Assembly: GCA_016840425.1 (NCBI GenBank)
Contig: JAEOSI010000116.1
Location: forward strand, 1 to 7,197
Reading direction: 5' to 3'
Source of the DNA: Candidatus Wukongarchaeum yapensis
GTDB taxonomy: Archaea > Asgardarchaeota > Wukongarchaeia > Wukongarchaeales > Wukongarchaeaceae
DNA: 7,197 nucleotides
This document shows, piece after piece, positions 1-6,526 of the stretch (positions are counted from its first letter, which is position 1; each line of letters starts with the position of its first letter). A model generated the notes under the pieces. The model was not told where the DNA came from. It saw only the letters and a program-made list of their open reading frames with translations, and searched no databases. Made by a program: the position numbers and the translations under genes.

Positions 1-285
1 GTTGTGGGTTTGCTGGAAAACATGTTCTTGTTCAACCATGATGCTTGGAATACCTATTCCTATAGCTCTGTTACATGCATCTCTTGTAAAGTGGTCGTGA
101 GATGTCTTTAATTTCTCTAAAGTTGCTTCTGATCCTGGTGGTGGGGCTACTTTTATGTCAGGGTGCACCATCCCCGCGCCCGCTTCAAAGCCCCATTTTG
201 GCGCTGATACTGGGTGTGGTGCTTCTCCAAAAACCATATCATCAGCAGCGGTATATGCCACGGATGTGTATGCTTTTCTAGCCAT
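1..285 (-). CDS. mtaB: Methanol:corrinoid methyltransferase MtaB, N-terminal 95 aa (continues beyond window start)
   Basis: Hand translation from ATG at 285-283: MARKAYTSVAYTAADDMVFGEAPHPVSAPKWGFEAGAGMVHPDIKVAPPPGSEATLEKLKTSHDHFTRDACNRAIGIGIPSIMVEQEHVFQQTHN, open to base 1. Colinear with the recalled Methanosarcina MtaB N-terminus (YTSMAY..ADEM.FG...PV......E.GAG...P....AP.P...EKL......G.P....ETEHVQQ). GAGGA SD 7 nt upstream; mtaC and mtaA in the same window. Not in the supplied ORF track. Confidence 0.9.
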   Translation of the reverse strand, partial: MARKAYTSVAYTAADDMVFGEAPHPVSAPKWGFEAGAGMVHPDIKVAPPPGSEATLEKLKTSHDHFTRDACNRAIGIGIPSIMVEQEHVFQQTHN

Positions 286-696: not shown

Positions 697-975
697 ATGT
701 TCTGTGAAATGTGCGGTAAATTTACAACAGTTCAGAAATTTATCTCTCCAAGATCAAAGACAATAACCCAGCTAATCTGTGTTTGTCCCAAATGTTTCAA
801 CCAGTTAGGTGAACAAATAACTGCAATTAAAATAGTCTCAGAAATTTTTGAGGGAATAAGATCAAAGATGGAGGATGTTAAACTTTTCCTTTATAACAAT
901 TCACTAGAGTTTGTAAAGGGTTATTTCACAGGAAAGCTTGTTAACTACTTACACAACTTTACCAGTACTAGATAA
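697..975 (+). CDS. Small zinc-ribbon/zinc-finger protein of unknown function (92 aa)
   Basis: CEMC at residues 3-6 and CPKC at residues 30-33 form a CxxC-x23-CxxC pattern. GGTGA SD at 686-690, 6 nt before the ATG. Confidence 0.65.
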   Translation: MFCEMCGKFTTVQKFISPRSKTITQLICVCPKCFNQLGEQITAIKIVSEIFEGIRSKMEDVKLFLYNNSLEFVKGYFTGKLVNYLHNFTSTR

Positions 976-1462: not shown

Positions 1463-1501
1463 ATGATATTGGAGGAGATGACTACACATGATATCGGAGG
1501 A
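1463..1501 (+). repeat. Direct repeat of the gene start, ATGATAT(T/C)GGAGGA, 25-nt period
   Basis: 1463-1476 ATGATATTGGAGGA and 1488-1501 ATGATATCGGAGGA, 13/14 identical. The two ATGs are in different frames. Confidence 0.75.
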
Positions 1502-2216
1502 AGAGGTATCAAAAAAAGTTATAGAAAAATTTAATTCGATAGAAGGAGTTATAGGCGTTATACGACTAAATGAAGATCAGGTAATAGATACATTTGGACT
1601 AGAATCTAGAGCTTTAGAAAATGTTCTGGGCGGTCTTGCTAAAGGAGTAAACGAGGGATTAGAAAAAGTTATTCAGAGTGATGCGGTATTTTCGGCATTT
1701 ACGGACAGATCTTTTGAATGGCCTAAAGACTCCCTTTTTCAAATAGTAAGTAGCGACGGAATTATAGGCGAAGAAATACGGGATAAAGAAAAGTTAGAGG
1801 AGTTAAAAAAGTCAGAAAATGTAATCATTATTGGCGATTGTTTCTATATAAAAAAAGATAAACTAGAAAATTGGAAGGCTGTTAAAGAAGGTTTATTCCG
1901 AGCAATATTTCCACCAATAAATTTCAACAGAGAAGTAAAAGATATTCCAGAAGTTGTGGAATGCATTGGATGCTTTACTAGCGGTCCCTGCTTTGAATAT
2001 TTAAAACTGGAGTTTGAGGGTAAAATAGATCTATCAGATCCCGGTTACGGCTTCTTTTTGGTAGGTCTCCGTTTTGACCCAGCTAAAGTCGCTTTTTCAC
2101 CAGGAACTAAGCCTAATGTCTTTTTAAAGAGCCTAAAAAGTCGCCATAAATCAACAGGAGGTCGAAGCCCAAATTTTGAAAAAGTTTATCGAACTTTTTT
2201 CTCAAATAATGTTTAA
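1488..2216 (+). CDS. Hypothetical protein (242 aa), probably a distant member of an uncharacterised archaeal family, with a C-terminal extension
   Basis: Long ORF with promoter, GGAGGA SD (1471-1476) and terminator. Segments NEGLEKV, DGIIGEEI, IFPPINF and FLVG recall a conserved archaeal protein family of unknown function that I cannot name reliably. Function not assignable. Confidence 0.75.
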   Translation: MISEEEVSKKVIEKFNSIEGVIGVIRLNEDQVIDTFGLESRALENVLGGLAKGVNEGLEKVIQSDAVFSAFTDRSFEWPKDSLFQIVSSDGIIGEEIRDKEKLEELKKSENVIIIGDCFYIKKDKLENWKAVKEGLFRAIFPPINFNREVKDIPEVVECIGCFTSGPCFEYLKLEFEGKIDLSDPGYGFFLVGLRFDPAKVAFSPGTKPNVFLKSLKSRHKSTGGRSPNFEKVYRTFFSNNV

Positions 2217-2351: not shown

Positions 2352-4070
2352 TTATTGTTTTCTTTCAATACTTTGTTGGAGGTCTGGGAATTCTTCTTCC
2401 ATCATTTTTTGTCCTCTTTTTTTATCTCCTACGTATAATGGTCCTCCAGGTCCTTGTCTCTCAACAAAAATTTTATCTATTCTAAGCACCGTTGTTGCTG
2501 CTTCAAAGGCCCCTAGTAAGATCTGTTTCTTAACGCCTAACGGTTCAAAAATTCCATTTTTCCCTCCAACATCTCCTATAGTACCTCTAAGACAATCAAA
2601 TCCAATGTTAGCTTTTCCGTTTTTATGTTCCATTTTTAGGTTTGCTAACAGCTCTTGAGCGTCAAAACCCGCATTTTTTGCTAGAGCTTCTGGTATGCAT
2701 TCAAGACTTTCAGCGAACTTTTTTACCGCTAATTGTTCCCTTTTACCAAACTTGTAAGCGTGTGATCTAAGTCTTTTTGAAAGCTCCAGTTCAACCGCTC
2801 CACCTCCAACCACCACAAAAGGGTTTTCTATTACATTTTTTACCGCATTTAACCCGTTTTTAATTATTCTGCTAACTTCTCTTGCAACAACGTCAATACC
2901 GCCTCTTACAAGGATTCCAATAGCTTTCGGATCTTCTACCCCCTCTATGAAAATCACCTCTTCATCACCAACCTTACGTCGCTCAAATAGTTCTGCTTTT
3001 CCTAAGTCCTCAGGTTTTAAGTCAAAAATGTCTTGAATCACTCTTGCCCCAGTAGCTTTAACTAATCGCTCCATATCATCAATCAAAGTCTGTTCAATAG
3101 CGGCAATTCCTCTTTTAAATAAAGGCTGATAAAACACATCATCGATCTTTTGTTGGCAAAAAATAACATTAGCCCCTGTTTCAGCAAATTTGCCCACTAT
3201 CTCTTCTATAATATCTCTCTGCTCGTTAGCGAAATCTTCTCTTTGTCCTAATTTAGTAATAACTAATTTTGTGTAACGGGCTTCAGAATGCCTGAAAAAT
3301 AAACCATCCATCGTTTTATTTATAAGCAATATTTTACAATTTTTAATCCTTTTTGGCATATGCTTATAAAAAACCTCTTTATCTATAATCAATCCATTAA
3401 CAATTTTTGTATCTGAAACGCCTCCTCCTTCCCTGCGTGTCAAACCTATATTATCCAAGTCAACTCTCCATTTTTCTCCGTCAACCTTTTCTGCGACCTG
3501 TTTTACTGCTTTTATAATCATATCGGCTAGATTTTGTTCTGAACCTTCTACTGTTTTGTTGTTCATGGTGCTGATTGCAACCCTTTTCAAAACATCATTA
3601 TCTTTATTTATGTCAACAAAGATTGCTATTTCTTTTAAAATCTCGAAAACTTCTTCTAATGCTTTTTTATAACCTTTTATAATCACTGTGGGATGAATTC
3701 CCATCTTTAAAAGTTCTTCAGCTTTTCTGAGAAGTTCACCTGCAATTATAATCACGCTTTTAGTACCATCTCCAACTTCCTCCTCCTGGGCTTCTACAAC
3801 TTTGGTAATAAACTTGGCTATAGGATGCTCAACTTGAGCTGCTTTTATGATTTTTGCCCCATAATTGCTTATAGCGGTGTCAACATCTTGGGGTCTAGGT
3901 CCATGAATGGTCATTAAAATTTTATCTAACCCGTTAGGCCCTAGAGATGTCTTTAACGCTTCTGCAAAAGCTTTAAAAGCCTCAATGTTTATTTTTCTCG
4001 CTTCTTCTCCTTTGATGTATCTGGATCCTTCAGTCCAAATCTGGAGTTTCTCGCTTTCAATCTTGGGCAT
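2352..4070 (-). CDS. ths: Group II chaperonin (thermosome) subunit, divergent paralogue (572 aa)
   Basis: Full-length colinearity with thermosome subunits: SLGPNGLDK, EHPIAK, EVGDGT, AGELLRKAEELL..GIHPT.II.GY, GANVIFCQ..ID, KATGA, LVRGG, GGGAVE, LA.NAG.D, EPL.VK, LRID. GAGGG SD at 4079-4083. Confidence 0.95.
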   Translation of the reverse strand: MPKIESEKLQIWTEGSRYIKGEEARKINIEAFKAFAEALKTSLGPNGLDKILMTIHGPRPQDVDTAISNYGAKIIKAAQVEHPIAKFITKVVEAQEEEVGDGTKSVIIIAGELLRKAEELLKMGIHPTVIIKGYKKALEEVFEILKEIAIFVDINKDNDVLKRVAISTMNNKTVEGSEQNLADMIIKAVKQVAEKVDGEKWRVDLDNIGLTRREGGGVSDTKIVNGLIIDKEVFYKHMPKRIKNCKILLINKTMDGLFFRHSEARYTKLVITKLGQREDFANEQRDIIEEIVGKFAETGANVIFCQQKIDDVFYQPLFKRGIAAIEQTLIDDMERLVKATGARVIQDIFDLKPEDLGKAELFERRKVGDEEVIFIEGVEDPKAIGILVRGGIDVVAREVSRIIKNGLNAVKNVIENPFVVVGGGAVELELSKRLRSHAYKFGKREQLAVKKFAESLECIPEALAKNAGFDAQELLANLKMEHKNGKANIGFDCLRGTIGDVGGKNGIFEPLGVKKQILLGAFEAATTVLRIDKIFVERQGPGGPLYVGDKKRGQKMMEEEFPDLQQSIERKQ

Positions 4071-4123
4071 TTTAAAATCCCTCTAGCGAATAAATTCAAC
4101 TTTTAAAATATATCTAAAATCGC

Positions 4124-4138
4124 TTTATAAATTTGTTC
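4124..4138 (-). promoter_or_regulatory. BRE + TATA box of the chaperonin gene
   Basis: Minus strand GAACAAA-TTTATAAA, TATA at 4131-4124, 54-61 nt before the ATG at 4070. Confidence 0.6.
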
Positions 4139-4140
4139 TT

Positions 4141-4500
4141 TGCTTTCAAAGATTATAAAAAGGTAATAAAAATATAATGATAAGGCAATATAAAAATTGT
4201 GACTTTAATTAACTTAGATTTAATTATGATAAATTATAACTAAGAAAAGAAAAATTCAATTAATTATAATAGAGTATCATTTATTTTACTTAAAAAGTTT
4301 ACAAATCTAAATGTTAAAATTAAAAATCGCTTTAACTTATTAATATTGGAAAAATTCTGTCTCCATAAAATATTTAATAAATATAAAATATGGTATTATT
4401 GAATTATTTCTTAGAGATTAAGCCTATAAGAAAGCCAAATTGTATTTTCCTCTATTATTTTTTAGATATAATTTATACATTTATATTTTATTAAGTAAAT
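4141..4500. other. Extremely AT-rich non-coding spacer between divergent promoters
   Basis: Hand count 58 G+C in 360 nt (16%). No ORF in the track. Confidence 0.8.
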
Positions 4501-4511
4501 CTTTTCGGGAT

Positions 4512-4528
4512 GCGGAATACTTATATAG
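4512..4528 (+). promoter_or_regulatory. BRE + TATA box of mtaC
   Basis: GCGGAATAC-TTATATAG with TATA at 4521-4528; AGGAG SD at 4586-4590; ATG at 4600. Confidence 0.6.
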
Positions 4529-4599
4529 TGCAGGCGGGTTAGAGAACTGCCGAATAGCCATAAACGGAGTGGATAAACCACCCGTAGGAGAGACCGAAA

Positions 4600-5400
4600 A
4601 TGGTAATATTGGCAGATAAAGCAAAAGATCTCAGAACCGTTTTTAGACGTTATAGTCTCGAAGCAGAACCCGCGAGCCCAGACGCCGTAATCAAGACAGG
4701 TTTACCTTCAGACCCCAATTTTTCTAAAGTAGCTAAAGGTGTAATTGATGGAGATGCAGCAGCTGTTGAATCGAGCTTGAAAGCTGCATTTGGTGCAGGA
4801 ATAGACCCATTAACAGCCATTAATGATGGCTTAATCGCTGGAATGAATGTTGTAAGTGACCTCTACGAGAAAGGCCTTTACTACTTGCCCCAAGTAATGA
4901 TCGCAGCTGATGCGATGGCAGTAGGCATAGGCGTATGTGAAGACAAGCTTGGTCACCCAGCTGAAAAGAAAGGGTTAGTAGTCACTCATGTCGCTGAAGG
5001 CGATATCCACGATATAGGAAAAGAAATAGTTAGTGCCTTACTTGCCGCTAATGGATATGAAGTTATTAACCTAGGGAGAGACGTACCCGTAGAGGATGTC
5101 GTCAACACTGTCAGAGAGAAGAAACCTGCCATGGTGACAGGAACAGCCCTTATGACAACAACAATGACCGCTTTTCCAAGAATCGCTGCCCGGCTTAAAG
5201 AGTTGGGTATTGTAATACCGTTTGTTTGCGGCGGAGGAGCCGTTACCAGAGAGTTCGTAGAAGCCTATGATTATGGAATCCACGGCGTTAAAGCCCACCA
5301 CGCTCCACATCTAGCAGCAGCAGCAGTAAAAGGCAAAAGCTGGAAAACAATACGTGAAGATTACGAAGACATCACAGGCGGATACGCCTACAAGTGGTAG
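4600..5400 (+). CDS. mtaC: Corrinoid protein of the methanol methyltransferase system, MtaC (266 aa)
   Basis: Cobalamin His-on motif HVAEGDIHDIGK (DxHxxG), LGRDVP, TGTALMTTTM, CGGGAV, helical cap (GM..V..LY..G...LP.VM..ADAM), and the MtaC-type N-terminal arm VFRRYSL. Adjacent to an MtaA-type gene. Confidence 0.92.
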   Translation: MVILADKAKDLRTVFRRYSLEAEPASPDAVIKTGLPSDPNFSKVAKGVIDGDAAAVESSLKAAFGAGIDPLTAINDGLIAGMNVVSDLYEKGLYYLPQVMIAADAMAVGIGVCEDKLGHPAEKKGLVVTHVAEGDIHDIGKEIVSALLAANGYEVINLGRDVPVEDVVNTVREKKPAMVTGTALMTTTMTAFPRIAARLKELGIVIPFVCGGGAVTREFVEAYDYGIHGVKAHHAPHLAAAAVKGKSWKTIREDYEDITGGYAYKW

Positions 5401-5435
5401 TCCAAAAGCTCGCTTCTTAATCCTAACCTCCCTTA

Positions 5436-5465
5436 TTTTTTTTGTTTTTAGTTTTTTGTTTTTAG
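5436..5465 (+). terminator. Oligo-T terminator candidate after mtaC, built from a tandem 14-mer
   Basis: T8 at 5436-5443; TTTTTTGTTTTTAG occurs exactly twice (5438-5451, 5452-5465). Confidence 0.55.
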
Positions 5466-5503
5466 AGGTGTGTTTTAGTCAAAGTTGTTTTGAGGTGTTT
5501 TTG

Positions 5504-6526
5504 TTGGCTTTAAGTTCAAAAGACCGTGTTATGCTTGCTCTTAAGGGCAAGAAGGATGAGATAGACAGGACCCCTGTTACTTGTGCTAATCAGACGGTTA
5601 CCGTAGAGCAGATGGATAACCTAGGGATTTATTGGCCTGAGGGTCATAGTGATGCTGAGAAGATGGCTCAGCTGGGTATGGCCGCTTATAAGCAGTGTGG
5701 TTTGGAAGTGGCCGATGCTCCCTTTGACCAGGCTGTGGAAGCAGAGATACTGGGTTGCGAAGTGGATCTTGGGAAGAAGAAGGAGTCTATACCTAGTGTT
5801 CCCTTCCACGGGTATAAAGAGCCTGGGGATGTCCCTATCCCTGAAGACTTCCTTGAGAAGGGCAGAATACCTACAGTTTTGAAAGCGATAGAGATCATGA
5901 AAAAGGATGTTGGGGAGGAGGCCCCGGTAATCAGCCATACCAATGGTCCCTTCTCCTTGGCAGGTCATTTAGGGGAAATCAACAAAATCTTGATTATGAT
6001 CCTTAGGACGCCTGAGAAGGTTAAGGAGTTTGCAGAGATAGGGATAGACCTTATCGCTGACTACGCTAACGCTCAGTTTGACGCTGGAGCAGATGTGGTA
6101 ACTGTTGAGGACATGCTTGCCTCCACGGACATCCTAAGCCCTCAAATGTATGATGATTTTGCTGCTCCCTTCAACACCGCCTGCATTAAAAAGATTAAAG
6201 GACCCACCATCCTCCATGTGTGCGGTAAGGGAGACCTTATCGTTGAATCTATGATAGGCTCAGGGGCTACTAACATCAGCGTGGACATGGCTACAGACCT
6301 GAACAAAGCTATCCCAAAAACAAGGGGAAGATGCACAATAATGGGCAGCGTAGACACAATTAAAGCCCTCTTCCAGGGTACACCAGAAATAGTAAGAGAA
6401 CAGGTAATTAGCAACATAAGACAGGGCGTAGACCTCGTAGCACCAGGATGTGCTCTATCACCCCTTACGAAAAGCGAACTCATAAAAGCCATGGTAAACG
6501 CATCAATAGAGTACTTCGCTGAATAA
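5504..6526 (+). CDS. mtaA: Methylcobamide:CoM methyltransferase, MtaA/MtbA family (about 340 aa; start revised from 5354 to TTG 5504)
   Basis: URO-D-like family features: KDRV..ALKG....D.TPV, YWPE.H..AE.MA.L, VEAE.LGCEV, zinc-ligand motifs LHVCG and APGC. GAGGTG SD at 5492-5497 lies 6 nt before in-frame TTG 5504. The tracked 5354 start overlaps mtaC and translates the T-rich terminator. MtaA rather than MtbA is inferred from context only. Confidence 0.88.
   Translation: MALSSKDRVMLALKGKKDEIDRTPVTCANQTVTVEQMDNLGIYWPEGHSDAEKMAQLGMAAYKQCGLEVADAPFDQAVEAEILGCEVDLGKKKESIPSVPFHGYKEPGDVPIPEDFLEKGRIPTVLKAIEIMKKDVGEEAPVISHTNGPFSLAGHLGEINKILIMILRTPEKVKEFAEIGIDLIADYANAQFDAGADVVTVEDMLASTDILSPQMYDDFAAPFNTACIKKIKGPTILHVCGKGDLIVESMIGSGATNISVDMATDLNKAIPKTRGRCTIMGSVDTIKALFQGTPEIVREQVISNIRQGVDLVAPGCALSPLTKSELIKAMVNASIEYFAE

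Follow-up and report, generated by a model that had tools for sequence, protein, structure and literature searches.

cpnX, a conserved chaperonin paralogue without catalytic aspartates in the methanol methyltransferase locus of Candidatus Wukongarchaeum yapensis

Group II chaperonins are regarded as general machines for protein folding and as obligate ATPases. In the Methanococcus maripaludis chaperonin (Mm-cpn), the D386A variant binds ATP and does not hydrolyse it, and the folding cycle cannot be completed (PMC5019054). In the thermosome of Thermoplasma acidophilum, Thr97 (alpha) and Thr96 (beta), at the D+3 position, form a hydrogen bond to the gamma-phosphate; the mutants T97V (alpha) and T96V (beta) are classed as blocked in ATP binding and are assembly-defective, and thermosomes engineered with one hydrolysis-dead subunit type still assemble and fold (PMC5983026). 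A single Asp mutation suffices to block hydrolysis in both systems (PMC5019054, PMC5983026). Here we describe cpnX, a naturally occurring group II chaperonin gene of the Asgard archaeon Candidatus Wukongarchaeum yapensis in which both catalytic aspartates are replaced, and which lies among genes of a methanol:corrinoid methyltransferase system. The stretch analysed (the window) is a complete contig of 7197 bp (C111; JAEOSI010000116.1 of GCA_016840425.1), one of 277 in a 2.16-Mb metagenome-assembled genome (MAG; G000 below).

The gene and its product are as follows:

2352 to 4070, minus strand: cpnX, divergent group II chaperonin paralogue of 572 amino acids, coding sequence including the stop codon (open reading frame, PF00118 and NCBIfam matches)

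The frame is the longest of the window and open throughout, with 572 codons and zero internal stops, and the product matches Pfam PF00118 (Cpn60_TCP1) over profile positions 2-488 of 490 (E = 2.4e-148, 495 bits), which bears out the intact 572-codon frame reported in a first-pass annotation made by a model from the letters alone. The product passed the NCBIfam cut-offs for thermosome alpha (NF041082; 538.6 bits, cut-off 450) and beta (NF041083; 533.3 bits, cut-off 400) and, at 529.5 bits, missed the 671.1-bit cut-off of TIGR02339, the model for the archaeal thermosome subfamily, on which the canonical subunits of the same genome score 750 and 742 bits. Those subunits (P0122 and P0123) are encoded by tandem genes on contig C266, read TNDGATIL and GDGTTT, score 742-790 bits on the thermosome NCBIfam models and are 41% and 37% identical to cpnX, which is thus a third, strongly diverged chaperonin copy beside two canonical thermosome genes. 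Because cpnX exceeds the 'thermosome subunit alpha' and 'beta' equivalog cut-offs and its nearest sequence clusters are nameless, this divergence is invisible in routine annotation.

Residues were placed by HMMER alignments to the solved thermosomes 9rwp and 1q3r and by a 53-sequence MAFFT alignment, which located these sites of the nucleotide pocket:

3861 to 3863, minus strand: codon of Y70, replacing the catalytic Asp of TNDGAT (HMMER and MAFFT alignments; fixed in five orthologues)
3756 to 3761, minus strand: codons of K104 and S105, replacing the second and third Thr of GDGTTT to give GDGTKS (alignments)
2856 to 2858, minus strand: codon of N405, replacing the catalytic Asp of the ER..(H/E)DA motif (alignments; fixed in five orthologues)
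3555 to 3557, minus strand: codon of K172, the Lys that cpnX keeps in the (T/N)(G/S/N)K loop (alignment; invariant in alignment A1)

The motifs of cpnX read SNYGAK for TNDGAT, GDGTKS for GDGTTT and SRIIKNG for ER..(H/E)DA, and Y70, GDGTKS and N405 are common to all five orthologous sequences (the window, L017, L018, L019 and L004). We take Y70 to occupy the position of Mm-cpn D60 and GroEL D52, following the numbering of the first-pass annotation, and N405 occupies that of Mm-cpn D386 and GroEL D398. The structure-based and the 53-sequence alignments both placed the three substitutions at the nucleotides where that annotation had read them. Since the residues beside Y70 and N405 are non-acidic (SNYGAK; IIKNGL), both aspartates are lost rather than shifted, and an error of register is ruled out. 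Also kept, as had been claimed for LGP, GDGT and GGGA.E, are LGP (43-45), GDGT (100-103, including the Mg-binding D101), K172 and GGGA.E (422-427), the three named motifs being recovered in the 53-sequence alignment. The further suggestion that NNK in place of TGK marks a departure did not stand, as Asgard canonical thermosomes read ASK, NSK, GSK or ATK (ASK and NSK in the genome's own canonical pair) and the Lys is kept. In charge, the pocket of cpnX has lost two acidic groups and gained one Lys.

As aligned, K104 takes the place of the Thr that binds the gamma-phosphate (D+3; T. acidophilum T97 alpha and T96 beta, equivalence from PMC5983026). Lacking both catalytic aspartates, cpnX is very probably hydrolysis-deficient, as had been proposed, and the Mm-cpn D386A precedent argues strongly for this (PMC5019054). 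Together the changes at Y70, N405 and K104 lead us to expect that ATP hydrolysis is abolished or extremely slow, in which case the ATP-driven closing cycle could not proceed at a normal rate. The accompanying proposal that the subunit may still bind nucleotide is weakened by K104, which sits at the position whose Val mutants are classed as blocked in ATP binding (PMC5983026).

The divergence extends beyond the pocket: among 173 columns conserved to 93% or more across 29 canonical thermosome sequences, cpnX departs at 53. The structural changes include:

3882 to 3899, minus strand: PRPQDV, insertion of six amino acids (residues 58-63) at the tip of the stem-loop, unique to the cpnX clade (alignments)
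3294 to 3302, minus strand: insertion of three amino acids in the lid (L257-F259), in the same column as in the L023/f7 paralogues described below (alignment)
3111 to 3146, minus strand: remodelled helix 11 region (residues 309-320, IDDVFYQPLFKR; alignment)
2355 to 2459, minus strand: charged C-terminal tail of 35 amino acids in place of the canonical Gly/Met-rich tail, evolving almost neutrally (alignment and ratio of non-synonymous to synonymous substitution rates, dN/dS)

The helix 11 region is known as a substrate-binding surface of group II chaperonins. In cpnX its DDLAQHYLAK has become DDVFYQPLFK, and RRVKKSD has become EQTLIDD, so that the RRV.K motif is gone. An AlphaFold2 (AF2) model gave a mean predicted local distance difference test score (pLDDT) of 76.5 and a predicted template modelling score (pTM) of 0.74, with the secondary structure expected for a thermosome; helices 254-265 and 275-298 lie at the expected position of the lid protrusion, where pLDDT is 50-64.

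Pairwise dN/dS of cpnX was 0.28-0.43 over 10 orthologue pairs, with bootstrap 95% ranges spanning 0.19-0.58; the highest value among 300 resamples was 0.70, and 1 was never reached. The value near 1 that the first-pass annotation had named as a sign of decay was not seen, so cpnX is under purifying selection. Compared with the congener G001, the genes of G000 gave:

cpnX: dN 0.058, dS 0.17, dN/dS 0.34
canonical subunits: dN 0.07, dS 0.9-1.2, dN/dS 0.06-0.08
29 background open reading frames: dN 0.035-0.11, dS 0.17-0.77, dN/dS 0.08-0.35

The dN of cpnX is comparable to that of the canonical subunits and of background genes, its protein changing no faster than its neighbours, and the dN/dS is high mainly because dS is low. 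The canonical thermosome genes (L001/L002 on G000:C266 against L020/L045 on G001:C80) have a dS of 0.9-1.2 at ordinary dN, two to five times that of most background genes (0.17-0.55; one neighbour 0.77). By domain, the most constrained part of cpnX is the equatorial one, which holds the altered pocket and the ring contacts (omega 0.21-0.25), and the extreme N-terminus and the C-terminal tail are near-neutral. In the maximum-likelihood (ML) tree, the stem branch of cpnX has 1.62 substitutions per site and the branches within the clade are as short as those of canonical genes, a combination consistent with an early phase of rapid change that then gave way to conservation. A redundant thermosome copy on its way to becoming a pseudogene would also show a long stem (1.62 substitutions per site), lost catalytic residues and a dN/dS above that of the canonical copies. 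We rejected this explanation and consider it extremely improbable: the frame is intact in five orthologues with dS of 0.17-0.20, every bootstrap puts dN/dS well under 1, protein divergence within the clade equals that of the canonical subunits, and the region upstream of the gene is conserved.

That region separates cpnX from the divergently oriented mtaC:

4071 to 4599, no strand: divergent cpnX/mtaC intergenic region, about 530 bp, GC 0.21, holding a TATA-like box and GAGGG

The 160 nucleotides (nt) upstream of the cpnX start are almost invariant across four loci. The promoter and Shine-Dalgarno sequence called in the first-pass annotation were found in this conserved block, as TATA-like TTTATAAA at 4124-4131 and GAGGG at 4079-4083, 8 nt ahead of the cpnX ATG. 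In the intergenic region as a whole, long blocks are conserved among four loci, and strains differ by a 24-nt indel. One RNA library yielded contigs over parts of the window, its uncovered stretches being uninformative; these match 2584-2970 and 3627-3833 at about 98.6-98.7% identity, together with parts of mtaC and mtaA, a weak hint that cpnX is transcribed. GC content at third codon positions (GC3) is 0.27 in cpnX against 0.38-0.41 in the canonical genes, and its codon composition is of the weakly expressed type.

The neighbours of cpnX in the window, a context that the first-pass annotation had missed, are:

4600 to 5400, plus strand: mtaC-like corrinoid protein gene, divergent neighbour of cpnX (Pfam B12-binding and B12-binding_2)
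5354 to 6526, plus strand: mtaA-like methylcobamide methyltransferase gene, URO-D fold (Pfam and NCBIfam)
1 to 285, minus strand: N-terminal 95 codons of mtaB, cut at the contig end (Pfam MtaB)
1488 to 2216, plus strand: orf242, convergent with cpnX; belongs to 'c8', a family of about 190 amino acids that lacks annotation (no Pfam or NCBIfam match)

The mtaC-like protein scored 299 and 285 bits on the NCBIfam MtaC models, under their equivalog cut-offs, and 218 bits on pyl_corrinoid, above its cut-off; it is encoded by one of only three corrinoid-protein genes in the genome. The remainder of mtaB is on contig C84 (G000:C84:1-1248), which continues C111. The gene order mtaB, orf242, cpnX, mtaC and mtaA, with orf242 and cpnX convergent and cpnX and mtaC divergent, is collinear in the window, L004 and L019, and at each locus seen cpnX is flanked by mtaB on one side and mtaC-mtaA on the other. 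In L004, cpnX adjoins mtaC and has within 6 kb the genes for MtaA and MtaB and, just past the mta genes, those for a second corrinoid protein and for the activator RACo. Of 41 related genomes, only the two with cpnX were found to have MtaB, and this restriction to one genus among 41 Asgard relatives points to the methanol system as a lineage-specific acquisition or retention.

orf242 is kept beside cpnX in L004, L017, L018 and L019, and its family comprises 191 clusters (E up to 0.001). A Foldseek search against the PDB found no match for it, VIA-align gave nitroreductase/BluB-like fold matches at Z 7.3, below the level that stands out, and an Atlas feature search (score 0.81) was uninformative. 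The contexts of its relatives are mixed: one of three sampled adjoins RACo and a corrinoid protein, a paralogue (L063:2107-2736) lies 2 kb from an MtrH gene, and a further homologue is at L049:13050-13655. Between mtaB and orf242, the window also holds an open reading frame of 92 amino acids with two CxxC pairs, zinc-ribbon-like (697-975, plus strand), with a conserved counterpart at 9364-9747 of L004. The frame listed for mtaA opens with a GTG that overlaps mtaC at its end; the gene probably starts further downstream, since its Pfam domain is matched from residue 55 onwards and the L004 orthologue has 351 amino acids.

cpnX was found in 2 of 400 genomes of the same phylum (Asgard), both of one genus. 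Homologues were sought by single-sequence and profile searches of 5.8 billion proteins and by a scan of genome contigs. The protein searches returned three close clusters (95, 89 and 87% identity), after which identity drops to 45% with ordinary thermosomes, and no intermediates between cpnX and canonical thermosomes were found in either the single-sequence or the profile search. The contig scan gave one cpnX locus, on a 38-kb contig of a Candidatus Hodarchaeota archaeon MAG, which NCBI taxonomy places in the Asgard group, Promethearchaeati. Recent arrival of cpnX in a foreign island was considered and was not supported by composition (genome 38% GC; percentile ranks of cpnX 17 for GC and 6 for GC3), and the nucleotide identity of the window to G001, 86%, is typical for the genome pair and also weighs against recent transfer. 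cpnX and orf242 have GC of 0.35-0.37 and dS of 0.17, lower than the mta genes.

Affinity to the eukaryotic chaperonin CCT was judged with the NCBIfam models of all eight CCT subunits. cpnX scored 273-346 bits against cut-offs of 456-800, the genome's canonical subunits scored 349-509, and each model placed cpnX below the canonical subunits, with no specific CCT affinity. These lower scores, along with the one-genus distribution, indicate that cpnX is a late, derived side branch and not a step towards CCT. Of the first-pass interpretation as a whole, a real, selected and very probably hydrolysis-deficient paralogue survives, and its bearing on the evolution of CCT asymmetry is reduced to analogy.

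Linkage of divergent chaperonin (cpn) paralogues to corrinoid clusters recurs at four locus types besides that of cpnX, in these gene orders:

f7-type (G007, G017, G138): MtrH, cpn, corrinoid protein, MttB, RACo
G037, first place: cpn, corrinoid protein, MttB, RACo
G037, second place, and G027: RACo, cpn, DsrEFH, MtrH, fused double cpn, corrinoid protein
G040: RACo, three MtrH, cpn, UroD-family gene, two corrinoid proteins

Given the 7-20 genes with B12-binding domains in each of these other genomes, chance adjacency would be expected for about 1-2% of genes. Corrinoid-cluster neighbours were found at none of 17 canonical thermosome loci with 1.5-kb flanks and at neither of two such loci of 9-12 kb. 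The second P-loop Thr is replaced in every corrinoid-linked paralogue (K, K, K, K, A, I). Loss of the aspartates is scattered among them: one site carries Y, N, S or E, and the other carries N or A. cpnX and the L023/f7 clade share several derived characters, namely the GDGTK loop, the three-residue lid insertion in the same column, a long charged tail, a basic residue for G308, an acidic residue for R326, and K335R. The two ML trees (51 and 56 rows, LG+C20) left the cpnX stem in a polytomy. In approximately unbiased (AU) tests, a clade of all GDG(T/G)K paralogues was not rejected (p = 0.46), and a tree forced to join cpnX with the L023/f7 clade was 1.47 log-likelihood units better than the free-search tree (p = 0.57), the branches involved being long. 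A common origin of cpnX and the L023/f7 clade is thus suggestive only; if the grouping is true, the Thr-to-Lys change came first and the aspartates were lost later and independently, because the L023 member keeps both.

Several further features of these paralogues were observed. A fused double chaperonin is encoded in a single frame of 1081-1087 amino acids in two independent assemblies (L052:11022-14267, that is G037:C1 at about 3110.5-3113.8 kb, and L030 in G027:C237). Its N-terminal half keeps both catalytic aspartates (TRDGFT, HD), its C-terminal half reads GDGTKA with Asn at the D386 position, and the gene is flanked by those for MtrH and a corrinoid protein. Searched with the cpnX protein, G037 yielded 7 matches and G027 yielded 8, some of the latter being contig-end fragments; according to a 2019 review, five is the most group II chaperonin genes known from one archaeon (PMC6420498). 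An Asp-lacking paralogue of the same two genomes (L051:6620-8230 in G037; L053:9989-11596 in G027), reading SNDAVT and GDGGKI with Asn at the D386 position, lies outside corrinoid clusters, next to genes for CysRS, a GPN-loop GTPase, an Arf-like GTPase and a roadblock/LC7 protein. The L071-L074 copies (G140-G143), from congeners and of the same L023 type as the G037 gene, read TSEG, GDGTKT and IIKAS (D60 to E, D386 to A), and the G037 copy keeps both aspartates. The canonical subunit of G007, G017 and G138 is identical to a protein labelled Jordarchaeales.

On balance, we favour a reading of cpnX as an ATPase-disabled, chaperonin-like holdase or assembly factor dedicated to the methanol:corrinoid methyltransferase system. 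Such a protein would still have the thermosome fold of three domains with its built-in lid, along with most motifs of the nucleotide pocket. Without the water-activating aspartates and the Thr that binds the gamma-phosphate, it would not run the normal ATP-driven closing and would act independently of ATP, or by ATP binding only, holding or assembling the neighbouring MtaB, MtaC and MtaA through its remodelled apical binding surface. The presence of paralogues in corrinoid methyltransferase clusters elsewhere in Asgard argues for a client-dedicated role, and cpnX is probably a helper for the methyltransferase system rather than a general folding machine.

Three other explanations start from the same protein. 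cpnX could join the two canonical subunits in a mixed ring, as a non-hydrolysing position that tunes ring allostery for general folding. Both partners are available in the genome, the equatorial residues that make ring contacts are its most conserved part, the covalent fusion in G037 and G027 shows that pairs of Asp-retaining and Asp-lacking chaperonins exist in Asgard, and T. acidophilum rings with one hydrolysis-dead subunit type assemble and fold (PMC5983026). Against this, the six-residue insertion lies at the tip of the stem-loop, which pairs with the termini of the neighbouring subunit, the N- and C-termini of cpnX are almost neutral, its codons are of the weakly expressed type (GC3 0.27 against 0.38-0.41 in the canonical genes), and the absence of cpnX from the other Asgard genera searched places it outside the general machine. 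The mta linkage would be left unexplained, the tests that we ran do not favour a partnership with the canonical subunits, and we regard a mixed ring as unlikely.

It is quite unlikely, too, that cpnX is a slow yet complete ATP-driven chaperonin for special clients, with K104 or a water network replacing the aspartates. The Mg-binding D101, K172, GGGA and the lid segment are kept, constraint is strongest on the equatorial domain, and the repeated loss of Asp after the Thr-to-Lys change could mean that Lys offers an alternative chemistry; one Asp mutation already blocks hydrolysis, however, and cpnX has lost two (PMC5019054, PMC5983026), and the replacements vary among related paralogues (Y, N, S, E; N, A), which indicates a relaxed need for catalysis and not a new design. 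Re-use of the chaperonin shell for a non-folding corrinoid job, whether as a cage or scaffold for MtaB, MtaC and MtaA or as a pocket for a different phosphate-bearing ligand, would suit the change of the pocket from net negative to positive (two acidic groups lost, one Lys gained), the recurrent linkage to corrinoid-protein and RACo genes, and the adjacency of the orf242 family with its weak nitroreductase/BluB-like match. This purely inferential idea has against it the apparent retention of the apical domain and lid, as in client-binding chaperonins, and we find it very doubtful.

A number of points weigh against the dedicated, ATPase-disabled helper that we favour. GroEL D398A retains residual activity, so a slow ATPase is possible. 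The AF2 model has low confidence precisely in the pocket loops 45-72 (pLDDT below 50 over 45-72) and 96-100. The dN/dS of cpnX lies at the top of the genome background (0.08-0.35), indicating weaker constraint than on the canonical thermosomes (0.06-0.08). Gene neighbourhood in archaea is suggestive and no proof of a functional link, and cpnX, which is divergent or convergent to its neighbours, is not co-transcribed with them. Around the orthologues of the L023-type gene in G140, G141 and G143 (g24), corrinoid genes are lacking for about 7 kb or as far as the contig extends, four other divergent chaperonin lineages are located outside corrinoid clusters, and the Asp-lacking paralogues L025 and L031 adjoin unrelated genes. 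Finally, mutants at the position of K104 (T97V/T96V) destabilise the T. acidophilum thermosome, which makes both nucleotide binding and ring assembly uncertain (PMC5983026).

In a broader and more tentative picture, which we think rather unlikely, cpnX would be the methanol member of an undescribed Asgard family derived from chaperonins, in which Thr changed to Lys first and the aspartates were lost repeatedly, serving corrinoid methyltransferases (MtaB/MttB, corrinoid protein, MtrH/MtaA, RACo), for example as ATP-independent cages for cobamide loading or complex shielding. In open-access full text, we found no account of a link between chaperonins and clusters of corrinoid methyltransferase genes, nor any of thermosome paralogues of the cpnX kind in Asgard archaea; a paper on Asgard MtrH/MttB/corrinoid clusters names chaperones once, as a COG functional category, with no chaperonin in the clusters (PMC11291895). 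If the dedicated role is true, a selected, ATPase-dead copy tied to one enzyme system would mean that the chaperonin cage can be turned into a helper with a dedicated task and no need of ATP, and that such re-use occurred several times in the archaeal group nearest to eukaryotes, where CCT subunit specialisation arose. cpnX also gives a concrete handle on the maturation of corrinoid methyltransferases outside methanogens.

Among known systems, cpnX resembles the canonical thermosome and Mm-cpn in full-length homology (44-45% identity to the best thermosomes) and domain order, and it shares with them the lid segment, LGP, GDG-T, the loop Lys and GGGA.E. It differs from them in the replacement of the two aspartates and the second P-loop Thr, in the stem-loop and lid insertions, and in its remodelled helix 11, charged tail, TIGR02339 score below the cut-off and single-genus range; canonical thermosome genes form a tandem pair, whereas cpnX lies in a methyltransferase locus. 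The L023-type (g24) and f7-type paralogues are 32-36% identical to cpnX and, like it, adjoin corrinoid genes (in their case corrinoid protein, MttB, MtrH and RACo), several members lacking one or both aspartates, but their loop Lys has become R, S or F where cpnX keeps it, and their partners are MttB/MtrH rather than MtaB/MtaA. The low-ATP-affinity subunits of CCT and BBS6/10/12 are chaperonin paralogues with reduced or absent ATPase function. With these, cpnX shares by analogy the idea of an ATPase-reduced paralogue, having no sequence affinity to CCT and being a recent, lineage-specific offshoot. GroEL D398A and D52A/D398A are engineered hydrolysis-dead chaperonins, altered at the same two positions as cpnX. 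The engineered, hydrolysis-dead Mm-cpn D386A likewise has a position changed that is changed in cpnX (PMC5019054). Compared with these engineered mutants, cpnX is natural and selected, and carries in addition the P-loop Thr-to-Lys change and an altered client surface.

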